DNA of 63,613 nucleotides, counting the filler, from Bacteroidales bacterium (GTDB taxonomy: Bacteria; Bacteroidota; Bacteroidia; Bacteroidales; CAIWKO01), in the NCBI GenBank assembly GCA_035389045.1. It is 4 parts of 4 records of this genome, joined end to end, with 100 filler letters (N's around TTAATTAATTAA, not from the genome) between each part and the next. Parts side by side here need not be neighbours in the genome. Positions count along the whole stretch, not along the records: positions 59,646 to 63,613 come from DAOORA010000124.1; 3 more parts are not named here. One strand, given 5' to 3'. The position numbers and the translations under genes are program-made. The first letter of the stretch is position 1. Every line of letters starts with the position of its first letter. This document shows, one piece after another, positions 3,910-63,613 of this stretch. The notes under the pieces were generated by a model. The model was not told the origin of the DNA. It was given only the letters and a program-made list of their open reading frames with translations, and made no database searches.

Positions 3910-4674
3910 TTATTTATTTAAACAGTTTTTTACGTCAATTAGTTTTGCGATGATGCTTATTGCTATTTCTTCGGGTGTTTCGGCGTTGAACTTGATCCCT
4001 ATCGGCATATCAACACGATCGGTCTCGGTATGGGAGAAGCCTTCATTTTCGAGCATATGTTTGCGGGCCAGGGCCACTTTTCGCTGACTTCCTATCATGC
4101 CAAGATAGGCAAAAGGCTTTCTGGCTAGTTTGATCAGGATATTCTCATCGTACTCGTGCCTGGGTGTTACAATGACAATAAAAGTATTTGCTGTGAACCG
4201 GGCTTTTTCAATAGCGGCAAAGTATTCTTCACATATACAATGGTAAGGTGAAGCGTCAAATTCATTAAAAATACCTTCCCGCTGATCAAAGATCGTGACA
4301 CGGAATCCAAAATCCAGGGCATAACGTGCCACCACACGGCCTATATGCCCTGCGCCGAAAATATATAAATCCAGGCTGCTTTTTATGGGTTCAAAATATA
4401 TTTCAACAGTGCCGCCGCATTGCATGGCCAGGTCTTCTTCGAGTTCATATGTTTTTTTCAGCGGGACACCGTTTCTTAAAACCTCTAAAGCGTCAGCAAT
4501 GACCTGAAATTCGATACTGCCGCCTCCGATAGTTCCGATGATCTTACGATCAGGTAATACGATCATTTTTGACCCGGCTTTCCGGGGAGAAGATCCCGCA
4601 GTTTCAGTAATAATGCAAAGAACCACTTCTTCATTCTGACTGATAAGTTCTGATAATTGTGTATATATATTCAT
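3910..4674 (-). CDS. xdhC: XdhC/CoxI family Moco-insertion accessory protein
   Basis: GSSPRKAGSKM, GTIGGG, MQCGG, IFGAGH, YLGMIGS and PEEIAISI motifs; next to xdhAB. Confidence 0.92.
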   Translation of the reverse strand: MNIYTQLSELISQNEEVVLCIITETAGSSPRKAGSKMIVLPDRKIIGTIGGGSIEFQVIADALEVLRNGVPLKKTYELEEDLAMQCGGTVEIYFEPIKSSLDLYIFGAGHIGRVVARYALDFGFRVTIFDQREGIFNEFDASPYHCICEEYFAAIEKARFTANTFIVIVTPRHEYDENILIKLARKPFAYLGMIGSQRKVALARKHMLENEGFSHTETDRVDMPIGIKFNAETPEEIAISIIAKLIDVKNCLNK

Positions 4675-4708: not shown

Positions 4709-5947
4709 TCAACACATTCTTACATCAAAACCTGCTTTTTTGAGATCGTCAAAATAGGAAGGATAGGACTTGACGACACAATCAGCGTCTCTGAGCAGGA
4801 CTTTATATCCAAGCAACGACAAAGGCGCCAGCGCCATCGCAATACGATGGTCATTGTAAGTATTACAAACAATATTTTTTGCTGCTGATAATTTGCCTGA
4901 TTTTTCGACATGCAACATATCGTTATTGTTGGTGGAAAAATGAAACCCAAATCTTTCAAGTTCTGCCACCATAGCTGCTACACGATCGGATTCTTTCCAT
5001 GCCAGGTTGCGAAGCCCGGAGAAACTGCATCTTACGTTTAATGCCGCAGCTGAAACCAGCAAAGCAGGAAAGAGATCCGGGCTATGAAACATATCTAATC
5101 CCGCAGCGAAAGGTTTATTATGATCATTTCTTATGATGACCGAGTTGTTCAAAAAGGTAGTCCGAACCGCAAAATCCGTGAAAATATCACATAAGGCTGC
5201 ATCGCCCTGCAAAGAATCATGTTGCAAGCCTGAGAGTTCAATTTCCGCTTCCTCAGCCAGTGCAGCTATCTCGTACCAGAAGGCTGCTGCAGACCAGTCT
5301 GCTTCAACAACACAATCACAACCCTTGTATGGCTGAGGTTTAACTAGTATTGTATCATCCTGCCATTTGCAACTGATCCCGGACCTTTTCATCAGACCCA
5401 GCGTCATATCAATGTATGGCCGGGAGGCAATATTATTTTTGAGTTTTAATTCCAGTCCATCAGGCAGCACAGGCGCAATAAGCAGCAAAGCTGAAACAAA
5501 CTGGCTGCTGACGCCGGCATCAATTATGACCCGTGCTCCATGCAACGGCTTTCCGTCAATAATCAGGGGAGGATATCCTTTTTCTGCCACATACTGAATT
5601 TCAGCCCCTAAGTTGTTCAATGCATCAACCAGTGGGCCGACAGGGCGCTTTTGCATACGCGCAGAACCGGTAAGTACACGTTTTCCCGGTGTGACAGCAA
5701 AAAGCGCAGTGAGCAGGCGGAACGGAGTGCCTGCATCAGCGGCATCAAACACCTCCCGGTCATGGAGATTTCGGAGACATTCCTGAAGTACCAATGTATC
5801 ACCTGAGTCCGACAGATTATCAATCCGGAAACCATCCCTGCAAAGATATTGGATTACCAGCAGGCGGTTACTTATGCTCTTTGAAGAAGGCAGCGTAACA
5901 GAACTCCTGATCTTTTTCGATTTTATTTCTACCAGCGCATCAGACAT
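4709..5947 (-). CDS. aroA: 3-phosphoshikimate 1-carboxyvinyltransferase (EPSP synthase)
   Basis: LPSSKSISNR, SSQFVSALL, KESDR and DHRIAMA motifs. Confidence 0.95.
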   Translation of the reverse strand: MSDALVEIKSKKIRSSVTLPSSKSISNRLLVIQYLCRDGFRIDNLSDSGDTLVLQECLRNLHDREVFDAADAGTPFRLLTALFAVTPGKRVLTGSARMQKRPVGPLVDALNNLGAEIQYVAEKGYPPLIIDGKPLHGARVIIDAGVSSQFVSALLLIAPVLPDGLELKLKNNIASRPYIDMTLGLMKRSGISCKWQDDTILVKPQPYKGCDCVVEADWSAAAFWYEIAALAEEAEIELSGLQHDSLQGDAALCDIFTDFAVRTTFLNNSVIIRNDHNKPFAAGLDMFHSPDLFPALLVSAAALNVRCSFSGLRNLAWKESDRVAAMVAELERFGFHFSTNNNDMLHVEKSGKLSAAKNIVCNTYNDHRIAMALAPLSLLGYKVLLRDADCVVKSYPSYFDDLKKAGFDVRMC

Positions 5948-6006
5948 TGACCTTCAGCAATTTAAAAAGTTGTAAATCGCAAATACACAAATCCCTATAA
6001 AGCATA

Positions 6007-7068
6007 TTACAGCAGATTATTATAGAACACAAGGGAATCTGCGATCAGTTTTTCGTCAATAAAATTATCCGTTTTAGCTTCCCCAATGCTGCTGAGCAAT
6101 GTAAAATTGATCTTTTGCCCGGAATTTTTTTTGTCATTTCTGATAAATTCCATGATCCCGGTGGCATCAGCTTTGAACTTTCTGGTCAGGGTTAAACGGA
6201 ATATCTTATAAATTACTTCGTCTAATTCAGCACCTGAAAGTAACTTTTTCTTTTTGGACAACCAGGCTTCGCAAACCATGCCAATAGCCACGGCTTCGCC
6301 ATGAAGCAAGGGTTTTTTATCGTTCATCAGTGAAGATGACTCAACGGCATGGCCGATGGTATGGCCGAAACTCAGTTTTTTTCGTACGTTTTTTTCCAGA
6401 GGATCATCCTGCACGATCTTATCTTTCAGTTTGACAGCCTCTTGTATCAGGTCAGTACGATCAATAATATCCCTGATATCACGCAGTTTAAGGTCTTGCC
6501 AGAGTCGTTTATCAGAGATGAGCGCAATCTTCAGCAACTCAGCACACCCTGACCTTATATGTCTTTCAGGCAGTGTTCTCAGAAATTCCGGATCGATATA
6601 TGTTTTCTCAGCAAACGAGAAACTGCCTATAATATTTTTCAGTCCATTATAATCCAGGCCTGTTTTGCCGCCGATGGAGGCATCTATCATACCCAGCAGG
6701 GTGGTTGGTACATTACAGAAAGAAATTCCCCTTTTGTACGATGAAGCCGCAAAACCGCCCAGATCGGTGATGACGCCTCCGCCAAGGTTAACCAGTAAAG
6801 AACACCGGTCGGCATGATAGGTTATTAGTTTTAACCAAATCTTATTACAACTTTCAAAGTTTTTATTTTTTTCACCGCTTTTAACCATTATCTGCCGGGC
6901 ATTATCAAGGACGGGAAAATCTTCCAGCAGCTTCTTTTTGCAGTATTTTTCAGTATTTTCATCCAATACGATAAAAATACTGCAATGCGCTGCTGATTTC
7001 TCTTCCAGGTATTTCCTGAAATCTTCTTTTTCAGCCGCTGCAAAAAGGTAAGTCGGATTTTTCATCAT
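6007..7068 (-). CDS. aroB: 3-dehydroquinate synthase
   Basis: GGGVITDLGGF, PTTLLGMIDASIGGKTG, FGHTIGHAVE and HGEAVAIG motifs. Confidence 0.95.
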   Translation of the reverse strand: MMKNPTYLFAAAEKEDFRKYLEEKSAAHCSIFIVLDENTEKYCKKKLLEDFPVLDNARQIMVKSGEKNKNFESCNKIWLKLITYHADRCSLLVNLGGGVITDLGGFAASSYKRGISFCNVPTTLLGMIDASIGGKTGLDYNGLKNIIGSFSFAEKTYIDPEFLRTLPERHIRSGCAELLKIALISDKRLWQDLKLRDIRDIIDRTDLIQEAVKLKDKIVQDDPLEKNVRKKLSFGHTIGHAVESSSLMNDKKPLLHGEAVAIGMVCEAWLSKKKKLLSGAELDEVIYKIFRLTLTRKFKADATGIMEFIRNDKKNSGQKINFTLLSSIGEAKTDNFIDEKLIADSLVFYNNLL

Positions 7069-8440: not shown

Positions 8441-11302
8441 TCATTTACCGCACATCAGCACATACGGGCATAATAAACAGTTGTCTGTATTCTCCGTCTG
8501 AACAAAATCATCAGAAGGATCAAAAAGCCGCATCAGCAGGTCTCTGAGCAAATCTTCAAAATCGGCCAGCTGATCGTTTCCTATTGATTCTATATGTCTG
8601 GATCTTGTATTTTCAGGGTCTTCGTAGTAAAACACGTTTTTCACGCCGTCCTCAATATTTCTGAAACTCCACACGCCGCATTGCTGCTCCGTATATTGGT
8701 TTTCAGGGTTTTCCCTGTTGAACAGCCACCAATACAGAAGCAACTGAAAACAATAATCATTTTTATATTCCTGTTGATCGTTCAGTAAACCGGCAATATT
8801 GAAATTTTTACCCGCTGTGTTGCCGGATTTATAGTCTATGATCTGTAATCTATCACCAATCAGGTCTATCCTGTCCGCAAAACCTTTCAGCAGTATCTGT
8901 TTCACAAAGCTATCGGCAGGCAATTCAAGAGCATAATGAAGATCTTTCTCCGTAAATAAAACTTTATGCAGAATATGGTTCTCACGGTTCTCTTTTACGA
9001 TATCCCGTTGTACTTCAAGGAATTTCCGCAGGTAATCCTTTATCACATTATAAATCAGGAAATTCTTCCCGCTCATGCGGTCGTATGATTTTGGAAGGTC
9101 TTTTTCAAAATTTACCCTAAGTATTTCCTCATATGTTTTTAAAAATCCATCAATAATATCCTCAGTCAGTTCCTTCCCGATAAATGAAGTAAATAATTGG
9201 TCGAGCACTGCATGAATATGGTCACCAAATTCTTTGCTGTCTATGGTTTCGGTTATTTCTTCATTTTCCCATATTCCGGCCACATAACTAAAATAATATT
9301 GCAGTCCGCATTTTCTGAAAACATTAAGCGCAGAGGGTGAAAGCCCTTTTTCTGCAAGCTCCCTGAGCCTTTCGAGGATTTCTTCGTCTTTTTTTATGAT
9401 GATCGGTTGGGGCAAACTCTTCTCCGGTGGAAATGTCACAAACATTTCTTTTATCGTTATTAAAGGATTTTTCTCAGGTAATTCATAGGTCAGCTGGTTG
9501 ATAAAACGGCTCTTTTCGCCGCCGCCCATATCATCGGCCTGTGTGTTGTAAACAAGATATATCCTTTTGCTTCGTTGCATGATGTGATAGAAATGGTAGG
9601 CAAAAATCTCCTCGTTTTGCTTGTACGTCGGCAGGCTTGAATCAACACGTATCCCATGAGGAATGAACGAGGTGGCTGATCTGGCTTTGGGCAGCACACC
9701 CTCATTGACTGACAATAAAAACACCGTATCAAAATCCAGCGTGCGGGTTTCCAGCATTCCCATGATCTGTAAACCATCAAGAGGCTCACCCGCAAAAGGA
9801 ACTGTGGTCTGCGAAACAAACTGAGTGAACATTACATGGAGGGTTTGTACAGTAAGCTGAATATCTGCCGACTCACAGGCCGATTGGATGCGCGAAAGGA
9901 TTTTCAGGGCTGAGAACAGAAATTCGGCATCCAGACCTTGTTTTACAAATATAGTCTGCTTGATAAAATCAATAAACTCCGTCAGACATCTGATTGCAGG
10001 TAAACCTTGCTGATGCCAGGGAACAAAAAGATTGTCAACGGCTTCGGATACCGGATTTATACTCTTTGAAAGCAGGTTATGAATTTCTTTGCGGGTGTAA
10101 AAAATCCGCTCCTGCCCTTTCAGTATTGATAGCAGGCTGCCCTTGCTGCCTGCCGCCGTAATAAAAAAAGCATGATTAAACAGTTTTTGAAGGTCTTTGT
10201 AATAAAACAATGGTTCTAAAGCATTTTTAAATTTGCGGAAACGTTCCGAATTTTCATGCAGGTCAAACAATATCTCTATAAAATTATAAACCGATGAAAG
10301 CCTCATGGGATATCCCATAGTAATATTAAATTTATCAATGCTATCGGGAACCGAATTCAACATGGGAATTAAAAGATTTTCCTCATTTAAAACCACAGAA
10401 ATCTGTTCGCTGCTGATGCCTTCTTCCAGCAGGGAATTTATTTCCTCTGCCGCATATTTTGCTTGTCCTGTTTTTCCTGCCACCGCCACGATGGTGATGC
10501 TTTTTTCCTGTGTCGCAAGATCATTATCGATCCAATGTTTTTTTTGCAGATTCCACTTACCGAGATATTTCCGGATGAAATTCCCGGCTTCCTGCACCGT
10601 ATCATTGATATAGTATTCATCACCGTCCCAAAGCAATTCGGCTTTTCCCTTCTCATAAAAACAATTAACGACAAATTCTTCCGAAGCGCTCAGGGCATTG
10701 AGTCCTGCAAAAACAACAACAGTATGCCGGTTAAGCAGTTCATCCGATTCGTTCAGCCTGCCGGTAAGATGTCTGCAGGCCATACCGTAGGTAGCCATGC
10801 GGGCAGCCTTCATTCGTGCTGTAAAATCAAGATAAATATCGTGAAGCATCCCGTAAAACTCCAGGTAGTTCTTCTGAAAATCGCTCAGAGGCTTACGGTC
10901 AAGAGCCCATAATGCAAGGTTTTTATCTTCTTTTAAATAAGAAAAAACAAATTTTGCATCAGCCAGGTGCTGATCAAGCTCATCAAAATCCTGCAACAAT
11001 TTATTACCCCAGTTCAGAAATTCATCGAAGCTCTCCGCTTGTGATTTTTTTACAGTGGAATAGCTTTTGTATAATTCCATCAAAGAAATGAAATCGTCGG
11101 CCAGGTTCAATCCCGACAGGCCGATAATAAAATCCTGTATTGAAGAGATCTTTGGCAGAAAAACAGGCTTTTCAATGACCTCTGAAACGTGTTTCCTCAG
11201 AAAAAGCCCGGCACGGCGGTTAGGAAGTATTATTTGTAATTCACCGAAATTATCGGCATATTTATCGAAAAGATACCCGGCAGTTTTCCTGAGAAATTCC
11301 AT
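8441..11302 (-). CDS. PD-(D/E)XK nuclease family protein, AddB-like (inactive helicase + nuclease + Fe-S staple)
   Basis: IILPNRRAG, MGMLETRTLDF, LSPSALNVFRKC, GFADRID...IIDYKSG, QLLLY and C-terminal CxxCxxxxxC. Confidence 0.85.
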   Translation of the reverse strand: MEFLRKTAGYLFDKYADNFGELQIILPNRRAGLFLRKHVSEVIEKPVFLPKISSIQDFIIGLSGLNLADDFISLMELYKSYSTVKKSQAESFDEFLNWGNKLLQDFDELDQHLADAKFVFSYLKEDKNLALWALDRKPLSDFQKNYLEFYGMLHDIYLDFTARMKAARMATYGMACRHLTGRLNESDELLNRHTVVVFAGLNALSASEEFVVNCFYEKGKAELLWDGDEYYINDTVQEAGNFIRKYLGKWNLQKKHWIDNDLATQEKSITIVAVAGKTGQAKYAAEEINSLLEEGISSEQISVVLNEENLLIPMLNSVPDSIDKFNITMGYPMRLSSVYNFIEILFDLHENSERFRKFKNALEPLFYYKDLQKLFNHAFFITAAGSKGSLLSILKGQERIFYTRKEIHNLLSKSINPVSEAVDNLFVPWHQQGLPAIRCLTEFIDFIKQTIFVKQGLDAEFLFSALKILSRIQSACESADIQLTVQTLHVMFTQFVSQTTVPFAGEPLDGLQIMGMLETRTLDFDTVFLLSVNEGVLPKARSATSFIPHGIRVDSSLPTYKQNEEIFAYHFYHIMQRSKRIYLVYNTQADDMGGGEKSRFINQLTYELPEKNPLITIKEMFVTFPPEKSLPQPIIIKKDEEILERLRELAEKGLSPSALNVFRKCGLQYYFSYVAGIWENEEITETIDSKEFGDHIHAVLDQLFTSFIGKELTEDIIDGFLKTYEEILRVNFEKDLPKSYDRMSGKNFLIYNVIKDYLRKFLEVQRDIVKENRENHILHKVLFTEKDLHYALELPADSFVKQILLKGFADRIDLIGDRLQIIDYKSGNTAGKNFNIAGLLNDQQEYKNDYCFQLLLYWWLFNRENPENQYTEQQCGVWSFRNIEDGVKNVFYYEDPENTRSRHIESIGNDQLADFEDLLRDLLMRLFDPSDDFVQTENTDNCLLCPYVLMCGK

Positions 11303-11303
11303 G

Positions 11304-12773
11304 TTATTTTTTTATTGCTATTGTTTTTAAACTGTAATATTCGGCATAATCCCTGTTTATCCAATAGGATGTATCCGATTGTATGTCCGTAAAAAATATG
11401 GTTTGCGGTATACTTTGTAATGCATCAGCCTGCAGATCAAGATTTCCGGTATTTGTGGCCTCCTTAATCTTTATATACCGGGATTCCATTTCTGTTTTAT
11501 ATCCGGCCACCTTAAAAAACAAATCATAGTATGCCCGCGTAATGTTGTTCCTGAAATAATACTTCCCGCCTGGCTCCTTAAAGAAATCGGATATGGCAAA
11601 AAGTACGATGCAAACCAGCAATATTCTTTTCAATATATCGGGAAAAACAGGTATTGTGATTTTTTTTCGTACAAAAAAATGACAAAGATTAACCATGTTG
11701 ATGAACCATAACATCATAAAAACAAAAGAAATCAGGGCATGGACGCGCACAGGCGGATTGATCCCCATGCTCAGAAACCCCGGAATGTATAACACTACCA
11801 GTGTCAGCAGAGAAAACACAGACAGTACCCAAGGATTTATCAGGTACCGGTAACGAATACTATTTTTCCGTATCACCTGAACAATAAAAGGAATAACAAT
11901 GATGGTAAGCAATACAAAGGGCGGGCTTTGAAAATGCAATCCGAGCATTTTAGCCACAGCGATGCATGAGCTGATGATGCTCTGCACGTAATTCATTGAC
12001 CCTGAAAAAACCGACATGCGGACATAATTGCCCGGCGCCAGTATCTCAGCGAATGCGAATACCAGTGCATATACGAGTACTAAAGTCATCGTAATTGAGA
12101 TTTTTCGGTTGACATAGGTACTTCCGGACCAAAACAGTAGAAGTATGCCACAGATCAAAACCATGCTGATTTCATTAAGTCCTATGATGACAAAAGCAAG
12201 TAAAATCAACAGGATGGCAAGAGGTATCTTATGTTTCCGGGGACTGTGTATAATCCTGATGAGAATTGCCAGAAAAAATAAGGTAAAAGCATTTGCCAGC
12301 AGATATTCCACACCTGCCGGATACCAGTAGATACCTTCACCGGTTGATGGAAATGTGTTGATATACAACACAAAAAATACAAGCGAAAACAAAAACATTT
12401 CCTGCTTCTTCAGAAAACTATTCAGCAGTGTGCAAAAAAAATAATAACCAGAGAGAAATAGCAACGTCAGTAGCACCGGCGGAATCATTCGGTATATAAT
12501 TATACATCTCAGTGGGTTAAGTGCTTCGAGGAAGTTAGCCGAATAACGCCCTGTCCAGTTCAGATAAATGTATTTCTGGTATGCAAAGTAACCATGTTGC
12601 TGTGTTAAATTAAAAACACTGTAATCGTCAGCAGAGGGATAAACAAAAAAAGACAGAAAAAATAAAGGGGCTATCAGGATCAGCAATAGAATTATCCAGA
12701 AATATAGACTGTTTAGAATTTTCATTATAAATAAAAACCAAAAATAATCATTTCCGCTAAATTGAAAAAACAC
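11304..12773 (-). CDS. Polytopic membrane protein, DUF6056-like (putative GT-C fold glycosyltransferase)
   Basis: More than 10 hydrophobic segments; N-terminal loop PSADDY...YLNWTGRY; LAPGNYVR motif. Confidence 0.65.
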   Translation of the reverse strand: MFFQFSGNDYFWFLFIMKILNSLYFWIILLLILIAPLFFLSFFVYPSADDYSVFNLTQQHGYFAYQKYIYLNWTGRYSANFLEALNPLRCIIIYRMIPPVLLTLLFLSGYYFFCTLLNSFLKKQEMFLFSLVFFVLYINTFPSTGEGIYWYPAGVEYLLANAFTLFFLAILIRIIHSPRKHKIPLAILLILLAFVIIGLNEISMVLICGILLLFWSGSTYVNRKISITMTLVLVYALVFAFAEILAPGNYVRMSVFSGSMNYVQSIISSCIAVAKMLGLHFQSPPFVLLTIIVIPFIVQVIRKNSIRYRYLINPWVLSVFSLLTLVVLYIPGFLSMGINPPVRVHALISFVFMMLWFINMVNLCHFFVRKKITIPVFPDILKRILLVCIVLFAISDFFKEPGGKYYFRNNITRAYYDLFFKVAGYKTEMESRYIKIKEATNTGNLDLQADALQSIPQTIFFTDIQSDTSYWINRDYAEYYSLKTIAIKK

Positions 12774-20656: not shown

Positions 20657-20756
20657 NNNNNNNNNNNNNNNNNNNNNNNNNNNNNNNNNNNNNNNNNNNN
20701 TTAATTAATTAANNNNNNNNNNNNNNNNNNNNNNNNNNNNNNNNNNNNNNNNNNNN
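20657..20756. other. Artificial contig linker (Ns + TTAATTAATTAA)
   Basis: 100-nt N run containing a six-frame stop linker at 20701-20712. Confidence 0.98.
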
Positions 20757-40287: not shown

Positions 40288-40387
40288 NNNNNNNNNNNNN
40301 NNNNNNNNNNNNNNNNNNNNNNNNNNNNNNNTTAATTAATTAANNNNNNNNNNNNNNNNNNNNNNNNNNNNNNNNNNNNNNNNNNNN
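40288..40387. other. Artificial contig linker (Ns + TTAATTAATTAA)
   Basis: N run with linker at 40332-40343. Confidence 0.98.
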
Positions 40388-59545: not shown

Positions 59546-59645
59546 NNNNNNNNNNNNNNNNNNNNNNNNNNNNNNNNNNNNNNNNNNNNTTAATTAATTA
59601 ANNNNNNNNNNNNNNNNNNNNNNNNNNNNNNNNNNNNNNNNNNNN
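59546..59645. other. Artificial contig linker (Ns + TTAATTAATTAA)
   Basis: N run with linker at 59590-59601. Confidence 0.98.
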
Positions 59646-59888
59646 ATAACGTTTGTGTTGCTGTATGTGCTGCAATATATACTATGTTCTAATTGTGGCA
59701 GCAACCCATTTTCTGCCTATAAATGTGCTTAATATCAATAAATTACATTTTATACTTTTACAATTTCTATTCATATTTTCTTTCCATCGCTTACTCAAAT
59801 AAATAATAATTTTCCGGAGTCATTAATTTATACTTCACAAACTGTGGCAGCAATCTCATTTTTTAGTATAAAAGCATTAATAATCAAG
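59646..59888 (-). repeat. Direct-repeat cluster ending in a GTT core; putative recombination (attI-like) site
   Basis: Minus strand TTGCTGCCACA at 59843-59853 and 59694-59704, TTGCAGCACA at 59666-59675, CAGCAACACA at 59654-59663, then AACGTTAT at the contig end. Confidence 0.5.
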
Positions 59889-59891
59889 TTT

Positions 59892-61400
59892 TTAAGTTTT
59901 TATATCCATATTATCCAGAGGACTTTTAATCTGTTCCATTCCTTTATGGGTAATATGAGTATATATTTCTGTGGTTTTACTTGAACTATGCCCCAGCAGC
60001 TCTTGTATATACCTTAAATCTGTCCCTCTTTCCAGCAAATGGGTTGCAAAACTATGTCTCAACGTATGTACAGTTGCTTTCTTCATAATTTTTGCATTAG
60101 TACACGCTCTTCTGAAAACATGCTGTATGCTGCTCTCAGAATATTGCTCGCCCCGCTGTCCTTCAAAAAGCCACATCTTTGGTTGGTATTGCTTAAAATA
60201 TTCTCTCAAAATTAATAATAACTTTTCCGATAACAAGCTATTTCTGTCTTTTTTTCCTTTGGCTCCTTTAATAATAATTGCTTTGCGGCGGCTGTCGATA
60301 TCAGCGATCTTTAGGTTTGTTAACTCGCTGATCCTTAGTCCTGCCGAATAAATGGTCAATAGTATGGCTTTATGTTTCAGATTCGTAACGCTGTTTATTA
60401 TTTGTTTTACTTCTTCTTCACTAAGCACCGTCGGCAATATCCTTTCCTTAAATGGCCTGTCAATAGTTATGTATGGCAATTTCTTACTATTACAAACTTT
60501 TTCATAGTAAAATTTTATGGCATTGATTGCCTGGTTTTGAAACGAAACCGAAATTTTTCTTTTTTCAAAAAGGTACAGAAGGTAACTTTTAATATCGTCC
60601 TCTGTTATCTCGTTCAGTTCTTTCTTGCTGTAATAATTAATAAAATCAGAAAATGCAACAGTATAGGTTCGGATGGTATTATCGCTGTATCTTTTTAATT
60701 TGAGTTTTTCAATATATTCATCAGGGCATTTCCTTTCGTTTCCATATTTTTTAAGTTCTTTTTTGTTGAACCCCTTTGTATTGATAAAATGGGTCTCTAT
60801 CTGATAATTAAAATTTTTGAAATAGTACTCAATTTCTTCCTTGATGTGTTGTGAGTAGGGGAAGCTCCAGTGTTTTTGGTTTTTATCCCAAAAATAATAG
60901 GGGATGGTCTTCATTTTTGCAATATGCGTTTTGCTGAACGGAAACCTGAGTATAATCTTCCGGTAATCAATTATTTCGATTTTGATAATCCTGATTTTTT
61001 GATTTTCATTATTGATTTCAGAAACAGGTAAAGATGATTTTTCTGTCATCGCGCTCTCTAATTGCGAATCATCAAACTTTGAGGCACTTCCTTCATCAGA
61101 TAATCCTGCATCTGAAATCTGTCTTTTGGCATTTGGTTCTTGAAACTTTGAATTTGGATATTCATCCTTCTTAAAGATAGCCGTAGTGTCCAAAAATGCT
61201 ATGCCTTTGAATAGCCTGAACAGTTCTTTTAAATTATCTCTGTTGTTGGCTATGTGCCAGTTTTCAAGAGTACTACTAAACGTCGCACCCTTTACTTTTT
61301 TTATAAGTGCAATAAGCTCAACATCATACGGAAACAGAACCAGCAGCCGCTCCGCCCCGCGATGATTTACCGGTTTTAATACGATCGTTTTCATCCTCAA
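59892..61400 (-). CDS. Tyrosine recombinase (XerD/integron-integrase-like) with a long N-terminal extension
   Basis: SAM-like domain YSDNTIRTY...QNQAINAIKFYY; catalytic YSAGLRISE, KGKKDR, HTLRHSFATHLLE, LLGH and TTEIYTH; probable start ATG 61394. Confidence 0.93.
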   Translation of the reverse strand: MRMKTIVLKPVNHRGAERLLVLFPYDVELIALIKKVKGATFSSTLENWHIANNRDNLKELFRLFKGIAFLDTTAIFKKDEYPNSKFQEPNAKRQISDAGLSDEGSASKFDDSQLESAMTEKSSLPVSEINNENQKIRIIKIEIIDYRKIILRFPFSKTHIAKMKTIPYYFWDKNQKHWSFPYSQHIKEEIEYYFKNFNYQIETHFINTKGFNKKELKKYGNERKCPDEYIEKLKLKRYSDNTIRTYTVAFSDFINYYSKKELNEITEDDIKSYLLYLFEKRKISVSFQNQAINAIKFYYEKVCNSKKLPYITIDRPFKERILPTVLSEEEVKQIINSVTNLKHKAILLTIYSAGLRISELTNLKIADIDSRRKAIIIKGAKGKKDRNSLLSEKLLLILREYFKQYQPKMWLFEGQRGEQYSESSIQHVFRRACTNAKIMKKATVHTLRHSFATHLLERGTDLRYIQELLGHSSSKTTEIYTHITHKGMEQIKSPLDNMDIKT

Positions 61401-61494
61401 AATGACTTACAAACATAAAAAATATTTCCATATCAACAAATTCTTTTTGAAAAAATTTTTATAACATAACATTTTATCTCCCAACCAATCCCCC

Positions 61495-61552
61495 CGGTGG
61501 CTGAGCGAAGTCGAAGCCACCGCTGCTATAGCTGAGGCCCTCGAAGACACCG
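61495..61552. repeat. REP-like palindrome pair (GCTGAG-N4/5-TCGAAG family)
   Basis: CGGTGGCT-GAGCGAAGTCGA-AGCCACCG hairpin at 61495-61522 plus a degenerate second copy GCTGAGGCCCTCGAAGACACCG at 61531-61552. Confidence 0.65.
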
Positions 61553-61826
61553 TTCCAAATCAGAAAAAACAATACAATACTTTGTATTTCAAAAATAAAT
61601 TTGTATTTTTACACAAGCCAGGAAGTGTGATTTGTTTAAGCCTCATTCAGAACACACCATCAGCACAGCAAAAAATTTCAGTGGCGTACGGAGTGGCTTG
61701 TTCCGTTTAGGTTTTTTTACCCTGAAATAAATACCGGCTGCTTCCGGAAATCATTCGGGATCATTAGCGGACATAATAAGATCCGGCAGCAATAACGATA
61801 GGATTGTTTTACAAAAAAAGACACGC

Positions 61827-63359
61827 ATGAAAACAGAAAATTCATTTATTTACAAACCACGAAAGTTTTCTTCTATCGAATTATGGAAGAATGTCACAGC
61901 AAAAGAATGGTACGATCCTGACTGGCAGGTAAGGAATACGGTCAGAAACATAGAACAGTTGCAAAAGGTCATAAAACTAAATCCTTACCAGGCCGGTGAA
62001 ATACAAAAGGTTATCTATGAACTCAAAAATCAGGGAAAAGACACCCTGCGGATCTCGCCTTATTATGCTTCACTTATGCAGGAAGATCCATTTCATCCGG
62101 TAATGCTTCCCGGCGAAAAATCTGAAAAGAGAATTGACCCTGTTTTTTGGCAAAGTGTGCCTACACCGGCTAATTTATTATTTCCTGATACAGGGTTAGA
62201 AGGCGCCATGCACGAAAGTTCGCGGAGTTATGGAGCTGCATATCAGCGCTATCCGAACCGGGTCGCTCTTTTTGTAGCTGAAAATACAAGTTGTGCATCA
62301 TATTGTGTTCACTGTCAGAGAGCAAAATCGTTAGACTGTTCAGTAGATGTGAACAGCACTGAAATAAACAAAGGTTTGTTCTATATAACATTTAATAAAA
62401 ACATCGACGAAGTACTTGTTACAGGGGGTGATGCGCTGATGATCAGCAAAAAACGTTTGCAATACATTCTCGAAGAGTTAAGCCGGATACCGCACATAAG
62501 GGTAATCAGAATCGCTACCAGAGTTCCTGTGGTTTTGCCGATGGGAGTAACCGATGAACTGCTGAGATTAATCCGGACCTCCTCCAATAAATATAATAGG
62601 GGTATTGATAAGAACGTCTATTTCATGACACATGTCAATCACTATCAGGAAATTACTGAAGAACTGATGAAAGCTGTGAAAAAAATTCACAGGTATGGTT
62701 TTACGGTAAGAAATCAAACCGTATTGCTGAATCATGTTAACGATTATTATAAAACCCTGGCAGAAACATTCCGCAGGATGTTCTGGATCGGCATACATCC
62801 CTATTATTTGTTGCAGTGTCATAAAGAAAAAGGTATTGTTCATTTCATCACGCCGATACAAATAGGAAAAATATATATGAAACATTTGCAGGGGTGGATA
62901 TCCGGGATAACAATACCGCGATATGCTGCAAATATTGAAGGCGGTGGCGGAAAAATTCTTTTAATGCCTTCAGGACATGATACATTGAATACCGGGATTG
63001 GCATTGATGACAAAATATCAGAAAGTTATGCAACCGTATTTACTTGGGATAGCAGAAAAATTTTCCGTTACGAAGCACTTGGAAGAGCATCGAAGGAAGA
63101 ATATGAAAATGGTGTGAAAATAATGGATGCTTTTATAGGCCGGAAGGGGGTATTTCTTCCTAAACTAATAATCATAGACAAAAAAGGTAAACATATTGAA
63201 ACCACCAACAGAACCAAACTTCCGTACATCGAAAAAATGAAAAAGTCTGCACTGTTGGAATATGAATTATTCGACACGAAAATGCCACTGACTAACCCAC
63301 AAGATATTGAATATGAAATTGAAAATCAATTCATAAAATCTAAATACAACACAAAATAA
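61827..63359 (+). CDS. KamA-family radical SAM/PLP 2,3-aminomutase-like protein (substrate uncertain)
   Basis: W.D..WQ..N, RYPNRV, CASYCVHCQR (CxxxCxxC), TGGDAL, RIATRVPVVLP, NQTVLL, PYYL and GGGGK PLP lysine. Confidence 0.9.
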   Translation: MKTENSFIYKPRKFSSIELWKNVTAKEWYDPDWQVRNTVRNIEQLQKVIKLNPYQAGEIQKVIYELKNQGKDTLRISPYYASLMQEDPFHPVMLPGEKSEKRIDPVFWQSVPTPANLLFPDTGLEGAMHESSRSYGAAYQRYPNRVALFVAENTSCASYCVHCQRAKSLDCSVDVNSTEINKGLFYITFNKNIDEVLVTGGDALMISKKRLQYILEELSRIPHIRVIRIATRVPVVLPMGVTDELLRLIRTSSNKYNRGIDKNVYFMTHVNHYQEITEELMKAVKKIHRYGFTVRNQTVLLNHVNDYYKTLAETFRRMFWIGIHPYYLLQCHKEKGIVHFITPIQIGKIYMKHLQGWISGITIPRYAANIEGGGGKILLMPSGHDTLNTGIGIDDKISESYATVFTWDSRKIFRYEALGRASKEEYENGVKIMDAFIGRKGVFLPKLIIIDKKGKHIETTNRTKLPYIEKMKKSALLEYELFDTKMPLTNPQDIEYEIENQFIKSKYNTK

Positions 63360-63554
63360 AAGCCATCTTTCAGACATAAAAATAGTAAGTTGTGTCTAAG
63401 TTAATTTCAGTCTCAAAGTTTGACACACCCTAACCCCAATGCTGCAAGGTCAACGATCCGTCTGGACGGTGATCCATGTGATGCAAAACCCGTAGTACCC
63501 GACGCCTTATTCCAGAGACTTATCTAACTCAATCTCCCAGTATCCCAAGCTGAC

Positions 63555-63613
63555 AATATCCCAATCTCCCAATCTCCCAATCTCCCAATCTCCCAATCTC
63601 CCAATCTCCCAAT
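63555..63613 (+). repeat. 8-bp tandem repeat (AATCTCCC)n, six perfect copies + one variant, runs off the window end
   Basis: Direct reading; degenerate copies also at 63531-63548. Confidence 0.95.

Follow-up and report, generated by a model that had tools for sequence, protein, structure and literature searches.

A tyrosine recombinase without the IntI insertion and its adjacent attI-like site as the probable head of an integron-like cassette platform in Bacteroidota

The stretch of DNA analysed here (the window, 63.6 kb) consists of four contigs (C72, C73, C74 and C124) of one Bacteroidales metagenome-assembled genome (MAG), which comprises 135 contigs and 4.46 Mb. The contigs are joined by N..TTAATTAATTAA..N linkers at window 20657–20756, 40288–40387 and 59546–59645, and genes on either side of a joint are not neighbours in the cell. 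On contig C124 (window 59646–63613, 3968 nt), a gene for a tyrosine recombinase is followed, on its coding strand, by a site that resembles the attI recombination site of integrons; because this locus sits wholly on C124, its end at 59646 is a genuine contig break. Here we describe the recombinase, its site and the arrays found behind its relatives, and argue that the window very probably holds the integrase and attI end of a chromosomal integron-like cassette platform that is common in the window's class. C-numbers denote contigs of this genome and L-numbers loci or contigs of relatives, except for L106, which is the own-genome region C29:41251–49250. The principal features are as follows.

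59892..61394, minus strand: tyrosine recombinase gene, 500 amino acids (aa) from an ATG; a TTG at 61400 would give 502 aa
60489..60719, minus strand: SAM-like core-binding domain, residues 228–304 (Pfam)
59949..60428, minus strand: catalytic domain, residues 325–484 (Pfam Phage_integrase)
59843..59888, minus strand: distal 45-nt direct repeat, ending in TTGCTGCCACA (59843–59853), seen in self-alignment and in relatives
59694..59738, minus strand: proximal 45-nt direct repeat, ending in TTGCTGCCACA (59694–59704), seen in self-alignment and in relatives
59657..59675, minus strand: inverted pair TTGCAGC...ACAGCAAC, the right arm of which, CAGCAAC (59657–59663), is the putative left box of the core
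59646..59656, minus strand: spacer ACAAAC (59651–59656) and crossover box GTTAT (59646–59650), where C124 ends

The recombinase matches Phage_integrase (4.2e-40) and SAM_4 (5.8e-19) in Pfam, both within residues 227–490. Columns R356, K381, H445, R448, H471 and the Y480 region are invariant in 19 aligned homologues, and an identical 500-aa protein is already on record. Against family profiles, it scores just above the cut-off of the XerA model NF040815 (223.8 bits against 220, over residues 227–489 only), below that of the integron integrase model TIGR02249 (219.7 against 265, with the match in two stretches) and far below those of XerC (186.7 against 335.15) and XerD (190.9 against 329.6). 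TIGR02249 profile positions 181–237 are skipped in the match, and in an alignment to the IntI4 structure 2a3v, residues 402–415 of the recombinase (14 residues) lie opposite IntI4 residues 181–237 (57 residues); alignment to the XerA structures 5hxy and 4a8e is contiguous. Judged by these alignments, the IntI-specific insertion (the I2 helix region, between the β-hairpin and the HxxR motif) is absent from the enzyme, which belongs to the Xer/IntI-like ‘simple’ recombinases. A first-pass annotation of the stretch had already described an enzyme without the insertion, and both the 2a3v alignment and the skipped profile positions bear it out. NCBI names some homologues ‘site-specific tyrosine recombinase/integron integrase’, a label that comes from the NF040815 model and not from any study of arrays. 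PF22823 (MrpR_C_cat), which is listed for homologues, has no match in the own genome.

The attI-like site starts 39 nt past the stop codon and ends at GTTAT, 246 nt past it. Read on the coding strand, the two direct repeats are followed by TTGCAGCACA (59666–59675), CAGCAACACA (59654–59663), AAC (59651–59653) and GTTAT; every sequence element that the first-pass annotation had placed 3′ of the stop was found. The two repeat units share 35 identities over 47 alignment columns, and when the 246-nt intergenic region is aligned to itself, its best score is 25 (shuffled sequences, 13.7 ± 2.2), which none of 300 dinucleotide shuffles attains. Indels between its copies kept the 45-nt repeat from being detected by a general repeat search; local alignment recovered it. 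The 11-mer TTGCTGCCACA occurs 11 times in the 4.46-Mb genome, two of them at attI. Within the direct repeats stands GTTGCTG, which is the left box CAGCAAC inverted, and their motif GCTGCCACA resembles the 3′ arm GCAGCCACA of attC sites elsewhere in the genome; they are therefore likely to be accessory binding sites. Classical attI sites, such as attI1, have extra integrase-binding direct repeats. We read the core as the left box CAGCAAC, the spacer ACAAAC and the right box G↓TTAT(NN), the exchange point (arrow) lying between its G and the TT, as shown by the divergence points between relatives and the ends of cassettes described below; in C124 this would put the crossover between the G at 59650 and the T at 59649.

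We compared the site across 19 metagenome loci. In site-retaining relatives with 63–100% protein identity (L087–L094, L097, L101, L104 and L105), the core ...CA(A/G)CACAA(A/T)C↓GTT(A/G) is kept 100–250 nt 3′ of the stop, with diverged flanks; a few relatives (such as L096, L098 and L100) have no clear core and an open reading frame (ORF) directly after the stop. At 63–90% protein identity, the repeat motif and the core are kept and the other spacer sequence has diverged. Both ATTG.TGCCACA of the proximal repeat and GCAGCA.CACAA.CGTT are present in all four aligned platforms, the former without variation, and the distal repeat motif is kept in L088 and L091, with L094 having one copy, in the proximal position. 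The direct repeats upstream of the core are lineage-specific, being TTGCTGCCACA, AATAACACCAA or AAATAGTCCCAA. Platforms that are identical upstream split right after GTTAGC (L088 against L089) or GTTA (L094 against L097). L088 and L089 share only 1837 nt with C124; this stretch takes in about 80 nt 5′ of the recombinase gene, the gene itself and the site as far as GTTA, and the context is otherwise different. More distant relatives, from named genomes, carry a GTT(A/G)NNN box that lies 40–250 nt past the stop and frequently follows a short palindrome.

Contigs of the family also tend to end where C124 does. Contigs L013 and L022 stop exactly at ...GTT and ...GTTA, respectively. Of 64 family loci, 19 have a contig end within 400 nt 3′ of the stop and 3 have one within 400 nt 5′ of the start (binomial p = 9e-4); the gene itself is truncated at its 5′ end in six and at its 3′ end in one.

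On the long loci, the site is followed by same-strand ORFs that are separated by imperfect palindromes of about 130 nt with the form NNNNAAC-A...C-GTTNNNN. The ends of these units are linked by a simple rule: a unit starting G↓TTATCT ends in a site starting AGATAAC, and one starting G↓TTGTGC ends in a site starting GCACAAC. The rule holds in close relatives (L088, GTTAGCG to CGCTAAC; L093/L101, three successive cassettes; L105, GTTATGC to GCATAAC), where each 7-mer was a unique match, and also in Aquiflexum, Algoriphagus, Flavobacterium, Algibacter, a Flavobacteriaceae isolate and an Ignavibacteriota MAG. We then took 20 genomes chosen only for a family match on a complete or long contig, regardless of arrays. 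Chains of at least two cassettes start within about 700 nt of the 3′ end of the gene in 11 of the 20, and chains of at least four in 7. Among 200 pieces of 10.3 kb drawn at random from the own genome, the corresponding counts are 2 and 0; 83 of the pieces give exactly one cassette, so one-cassette chains are uninformative. Random pieces served as the control because palindromic arrays stay palindromic on reversal, which makes reversed or opposite-strand sequences poor nulls for chain walking (each gave at least two cassettes in 5 of 20). The downstream arrays for which the first-pass annotation had looked to homologous loci are thus present well above the background of random pieces.

The same pattern emerged when the rule was left aside. 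We scanned 14 arrays for hairpins, took the sites from that scan only and compared their four variable bases. Those in R′ of a site and those in R″ of the site after it are complementary in 43 of 61 adjacent pairs; among non-adjacent pairs, 32 of 409 show such complementarity. Such covariation between ends more than 1 kb apart implies that they pair once the unit is excised or folded, which is a signature of integron cassettes; it bears on pairing and not on strandedness. Among the attC-like sites, the bottom strand folds better in 7 of 7 with RNA parameters and, with DNA parameters, in 3 of 4 by minimum free energy and 4 of 4 by z-score, an asymmetry that is suggestive only. RNAalifold on a MAFFT alignment of 21 sites returned just 8 pairs, with the arms out of register, and for this reason we used nhmmer and no covariance model; Rfam had no match in the window or in three arrays.

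An alternative is that the palindromes are dispersed repeats of the repetitive extragenic palindromic (REP) or miniature inverted-repeat transposable element (MITE) kind, and that the recombinase is an ordinary Xer protein whose target is a dif-like site, or else an island integrase, with the island ending at the break. The best NCBIfam match of the enzyme is indeed XerA (223.8 against 220), short dif-like palindromes precede GTT in some relatives (L018, L034 and L039) and intergenic palindromic repeats are common in bacteria. However, the genome already has two other Xer-like genes of about 312 aa, and this explanation predicts neither the complementarity of the ends (43/61 against 32/409) nor divergence exactly after G↓TT, nor the several upstream partners of one cassette that are described below. 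We therefore regard it as very unlikely.

The own genome itself contains cassettes bounded by NNNNAAC...GTTNNNN hairpins, in line with another expectation of the first-pass annotation, and those on C29 and C43 obey the rule. The reverse complement of C29 starts with a partial cassette, followed by an attC with R′ GTTACCA at 349, from which the array continues.

Reverse complement of C29, GTTACCA at 349 to TGGTAAC at 2005: cassette A
Reverse complement of C29, GTTGTAT at 2130 to ATACAAC at 3910: cassette B
Reverse complement of C29, GTTATGC at 4039 to GCATAAC at 4967: cassette C, its end site at 4967 having a degenerate R′, then ordinary genes
C43:1–1153, GTTATGC at 91 to GCATAAC at 1021: cassette on C43, a contig that begins inside an attC

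The 3′ end of the C43 cassette is shared with cassette C of C29. An nhmmer search with a hidden Markov model of 12 sites found further attC-like sites on C16 (three), C93, C46, C1, C2 and C116. Those on C16 (32129–36686) lie inside a 75-kb contig and resemble a CALIN, the type of attC cluster in which no integron integrase is present.

Cassette products in the arrays include PF00144 serine hydrolases, proteins with type IX secretion system (T9SS) tails, a type IIG restriction–modification enzyme, NERD, Imm33-like and DUF4160/DUF2442 proteins and a nucleotidyltransferase. The PF00144 hydrolases (β-lactamase fold, E 5e-49 to 7e-59) recur as cassettes in three independent arrays, at the following positions.

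L106:4114–5814 (own genome): PF00144 cassette gene
L018:10413–11912: PF00144 cassette gene
L034:10179–11372: PF00144 cassette gene

An insertion sequence lies within one array, and the array of L105 contains a DDE transposase (4744–6336). In L034, the start of a cassette is duplicated exactly over 119 nt (9197–9315 and 11432–11550), and the second copy ends the contig.

The assembly graph gives a view of the break in C124 itself. A metagenome contig of identical sequence, L087, runs 92 nt past the break, and the G of GTT is its position 9751. We aligned Logan contigs (not raw reads) from 4 of the 24 runs that contain the stretch to L087:8900–9847. In these contigs, (AC)G↓TTATGG is the exact point at which the graph branches. 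For run X1, possibly the source sample, the contig with the recombinase has depth 32.8 and extends to 9778, 28 nt past the G; another contig, 692 nt long and at depth 141.8, begins at 9749, which lies 2 nt ahead of the G, so that the first cassette reaches 4.3 times the depth of the recombinase. A third piece of X1 joins other sequence (...GCGAAAGCAGCCACTGT-AC, followed by GTTATGG) at 9749; the same junction occurs in X2 and X4, and the end of this second upstream partner, GCGAAAGCAGCCACTGT, matches the 3′ arm of own-genome attC sites. Run X4 has three further loose-end contexts (four records) joined at 9750–9751. A first cassette that is several-fold more abundant and stands behind several sequences is what a mobile cassette looks like, and the break is best explained by a first cassette in multiple contexts or multiple copies. 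The first-pass annotation had anticipated several continuations behind attI: branching exactly at the break stood, but the alternatives among the loose ends listed are several sequences upstream of the first cassette.

The recombinase gene and 254 nt 3′ of it are single-copy in the own genome; a multi-copy insertion sequence ending at this point therefore does not account for the break. A search for the continuation of C124 among the other MAG contigs returned only chance 13–15-mers and no 18-mer, and the 92 nt of L087 beyond the break are absent from the MAG. One 15-mer match of the attI core, on C26 (34500–35700), lies in immunoglobulin-like tandem-repeat coding sequence (..TATQTVT..) and was judged to be chance. 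At its opposite end (window 63533–63613), C124 stops in a CTCCCAAT tandem repeat. There L087 links it to own-genome C101 through a repeat region of about 470 nt, matching C101 at 99.9% over 5313 nt, and C124 is therefore part of the organism's chromosome.

These data also bear on the explanation that the site is no more than fortuitous repeats in an AT-rich intergenic region that happen to adjoin a low-coverage contig break. The region is AT-rich, single-cassette chains turn up in 83 of 200 random pieces, and C124 is a short contig (3968 nt) whose other end breaks at a tandem repeat. But none of the 300 shuffles reaches the repeat score, the motifs are kept down to 63% identity, depth at the break rises from 32.8 to 141.8 where low coverage would have it fall, and contig ends fall toward the 3′ side in 19 loci against 3. 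An origin by chance is thus extremely improbable and, as far as these data go, already refuted.

We then considered which integrases occur in the genome and its phylum. In the own genome (96.3% complete), no protein matches TIGR02249 above the cut-off, and the best match is the recombinase itself, with the insertion positions skipped. In a phylum sample of 301 genomes, with family membership set at E ≤ 1e-50, the recombinase family is present in 111, a tally that includes plain Xer-like proteins of about 280 aa from other classes; two such proteins (L121 and L122) have no array. Within families f2–f17, whose listed rows belong to the same order or the same class, 48 of 74 genomes have the recombinase family and 1 of 74 a canonical IntI; for families f18–f20, not assignable to a class from the rows shown, the figure is 0 of 7 genomes. 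Canonical IntI (TIGR02249 above the cut-off, at 330–500 bits in L132–L143) occurs in 90 of the 301 sampled genomes, almost all outside the window's class. Chains of at least two cassettes lie near the gene in 9 of 12 canonical loci examined (L132–L143), mostly on its 5′ side (divergent), and their attC sites measure about 90–125 nt, including sites of about 121 nt with the same architecture. The phylum thus holds both classical integrons and the insertion-less type. A quick tree places the 12 canonical IntI in a clade (starred, at 99) to which the family does not belong; 20 of 21 family rows cluster at 84, and the window's recombinase falls in a starred 12-row clade with array-bearing members. 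The family accordingly appears to lie outside the IntI clade in this tree, the deep forks of which leave room for a sister relation.

The distribution matters for a further explanation, in which the arrays are built in trans by another enzyme (a canonical IntI elsewhere in the genome or on a mobile element) and the Xer-like gene is a conserved neighbour, such as a resolvase or a regulator. Canonical IntI with attC sites of the same architecture does occur in the phylum (90/301, with chains at 9/12 loci), classical integrases recombine diverse attC sites according to the portion of PMC4889954 consulted, and the insertion that is held to be essential is missing from the recombinase. Set against this, no canonical IntI was found in the own genome and only one in the 74 genomes of families f2–f17, where arrays are common; the first site always lies about 40–250 nt from the stop; the lineage-specific repeats change along with the recombinase lineage; and the recombinase and its site move as one module into another context. 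On balance we consider an enzyme acting in trans improbable, if less so than the dispersed-repeat explanation.

Upstream of the core domains, the first 225 residues of the recombinase are predicted to form two modules of the fold β-β-α-β-β-α-β with a disordered linker between them.

61164..61394, minus strand: N-terminal module 1, HARP/DRD/UvsW-N-like, from the predicted model (model residues 1–70; block mean predicted local distance difference test score (pLDDT) 87–90)
60780..60992, minus strand: N-terminal module 2, same fold, from the predicted model (model residues 141–200; block mean pLDDT 84–93)

Module 1 superposes on the N-terminal domain of T4 UvsW with Z 6.8 and a root-mean-square deviation (rmsd) of 2.2 over 62 residues; module 2 gives Z 6.3 with UvsW and 5.7–5.8 with the damage-recognition domain (DRD) of XPB. 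The HARP domain of SMARCAL1 (4o66) matches at Z 4.5, with an rmsd of 1.7 over 49 residues and a Foldseek probability of 0.95 (E 0.09), and is outscored by UvsW-N and the XPB DRD (Z 5.7–6.8); MutS domain I also matches the module fold at Z 4.5. In sequence, Pfam HARP (PF07443) matches weakly at residues 153–185 (21.7 bits against a cut-off of 25), and a Foldseek search of the N-terminal model against the PDB gave no match at E ≤ 0.001. Module 2 is common to the shorter array-linked relatives (about 360–400 aa), and relatives align from about residue 130 onwards. That these predicted modules resemble domains involved in reading DNA structure should be taken as a clue and not as a finding.

Two further features lie upstream of the gene on C124. 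Between the divergent recombinase and KamA-like genes, a GC-rich hairpin (GGTGGCT...AGCCACC) occupies window 61483–61530; homology with L088, a 90%-identical platform, stops at about 61480, placing the hairpin at the 5′ edge of the conserved recombinase–attI module. The neighbouring gene (window 61827–63359) encodes a 510-aa KamA-family radical SAM protein, which matches TIGR00238 at 233.5 bits (cut-off 199), reaches none of the cut-offs set for the 2,3-aminomutase equivalogs (lysine, glutamate and arginine) and carries a C-terminal extension of about 130 residues.

Taken together, the arrays of relatives, the graph and the cassettes of the own genome support the view, first put forward in the first-pass annotation, of a cassette-capturing system of Bacteroidota type whose array starts at the break. 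We propose that cassettes would be inserted between G and TT and read in the same direction as the recombinase gene, each ending in an attC-type palindrome of about 130 nt whose first four bases are complementary to the cassette's own bases after GTT. Such complementarity is expected only if both ends pair in the excised or folded form. The contig would stop at the crossover since the first cassette occurs in several contexts, with further cassettes on C29 and C43. The recombinase would catalyse attI × attC and attC × attC exchange, probably on a folded single strand, and either the N-terminal HARP/DRD-like modules or the core domains by themselves may recognise the folded sites, the direct repeats or both without I2.

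Several observations weigh against this interpretation. That the enzyme carries out the recombination is something we infer from sequence, and the acquisition of I2 is held, in the abstracts of PMC7790495 and PMC4792948, to have enabled recombination of single-stranded attC. Of the 20 sampled family loci, 4 have no chain and 5 have one cassette only. Among the loose ends listed for the four runs there is no alternative continuation behind the window's own attI, so that variation at this attI rests on the relatives and on the several partners of the cassette. The link from C124 to the arrays on C29 and C43 is not assembled, and a generic hairpin scan of the own genome gave no excess (179 matches, against 286 in reversed sequence), the sites there having been picked out solely by sequence-family and rule-based tests. 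With DNA parameters, the top strand has a slight folding advantage in one of four sites. As for the N-terminal modules, their structural matches are middling (Z < 8; Foldseek E about 0.09), and in some relatives linked to arrays the N-terminal extension is small or absent (open frames from stop to stop in L032, 331 aa; the gene of L127/G234, 286 aa), so the modules are not indispensable everywhere.

With these points weighed, we still consider it very probable that the window contains the integrase and attI end of an integron-like platform. A broader claim, which we favour by a modest margin over its negation, is that this platform represents a second kind of integron, in which a lineage of Xer-like integrases that never had I2, or has no need of it, captures and shuffles attC-type cassettes, perhaps reading folded DNA through HARP/DRD-like modules, and serves as the main platform of a large class that IntI-based surveys find nearly free of integrons. 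If the family is the working integrase of these arrays, cassette capture would be possible without I2, and the family would offer a natural experiment on how a tyrosine recombinase recognises folded DNA by another route. It would also mean that environmental and wastewater bacteria hold an overlooked reservoir of mobile cassettes, with defence genes, secreted proteins and serine hydrolases of the β-lactamase fold, and that MAG assemblies of these organisms are systematically broken at such loci.

Existing surveys bear on how such a platform could have been passed over. The IntI-specific domain is what currently defines the system in integron biology, and surveys rely on it, as described in the accessible parts of PMC4889954, PMC9024848 and 10.1101/2022.02.06.479319. 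For the Bacteroidetes, the excerpted text of PMC9024848 records only In0 elements and one complete integron (Salinibacter), and the extract of a preprint from 2024 includes Bacteroidota in its list of clades ‘previously found without any integrons’. Full-text searches of the literature yielded no account of an insertion-less integrase family with cassette arrays; subscription papers and supplements (for example the per-taxon tables of IntegronFinder, which perhaps list CALINs) were outside the scope of that search.

We rate the platform as one that appears to work like an integron while its enzyme falls outside IntI in tests of membership. Like classical integrons (IntI1 and VchIntIA/IntI4), it has a recombinase of the Xer/IntI kind adjoining an attI that combines accessory direct repeats with a G↓TT crossover, followed by mostly same-strand cassettes with attC-type palindromes, AAC/GTT ends, complementary ends and accessory content. 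Unlike them, its recombinase is without the IntI insertion, judging by alignment, and carries additional HARP/DRD-like modules at its N terminus; gene and cassettes point in the same direction, with attI on the 3′ side of the gene; the cassettes are larger, at about 0.6–3 kb; and in the quick tree the family does not fall within the clade of canonical IntI. The 3′ position of the site, pointed out in the first-pass annotation, stands, but the orientation is not in itself an oddity: ‘inverted’ integrons (those of Treponema among them) and archaeal integrons already provide cases of arrays lying 3′ of the integrase, as set out in the consulted parts of PMC4889954 and 10.1101/2022.02.06.479319. 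What is unusual is the enzyme, since the inverted and archaeal integrases carry the IntI-specific domain, going by the same portion of 10.1101/2022.02.06.479319, whereas the recombinase here is without it. Tools based on IntI would, if they saw the sites, class these arrays with the integrase-less attC clusters (as defined in the part of PMC4889954 available), yet here a cognate-looking recombinase stands at the head of the array. With the XerA/XerC/XerD-dif systems, the enzyme shares a two-domain core without the insertion and a score just over the cut-off of NF040815; it differs from them in its 225-residue N-terminal extension and in the adjacent site followed by variable cassettes.

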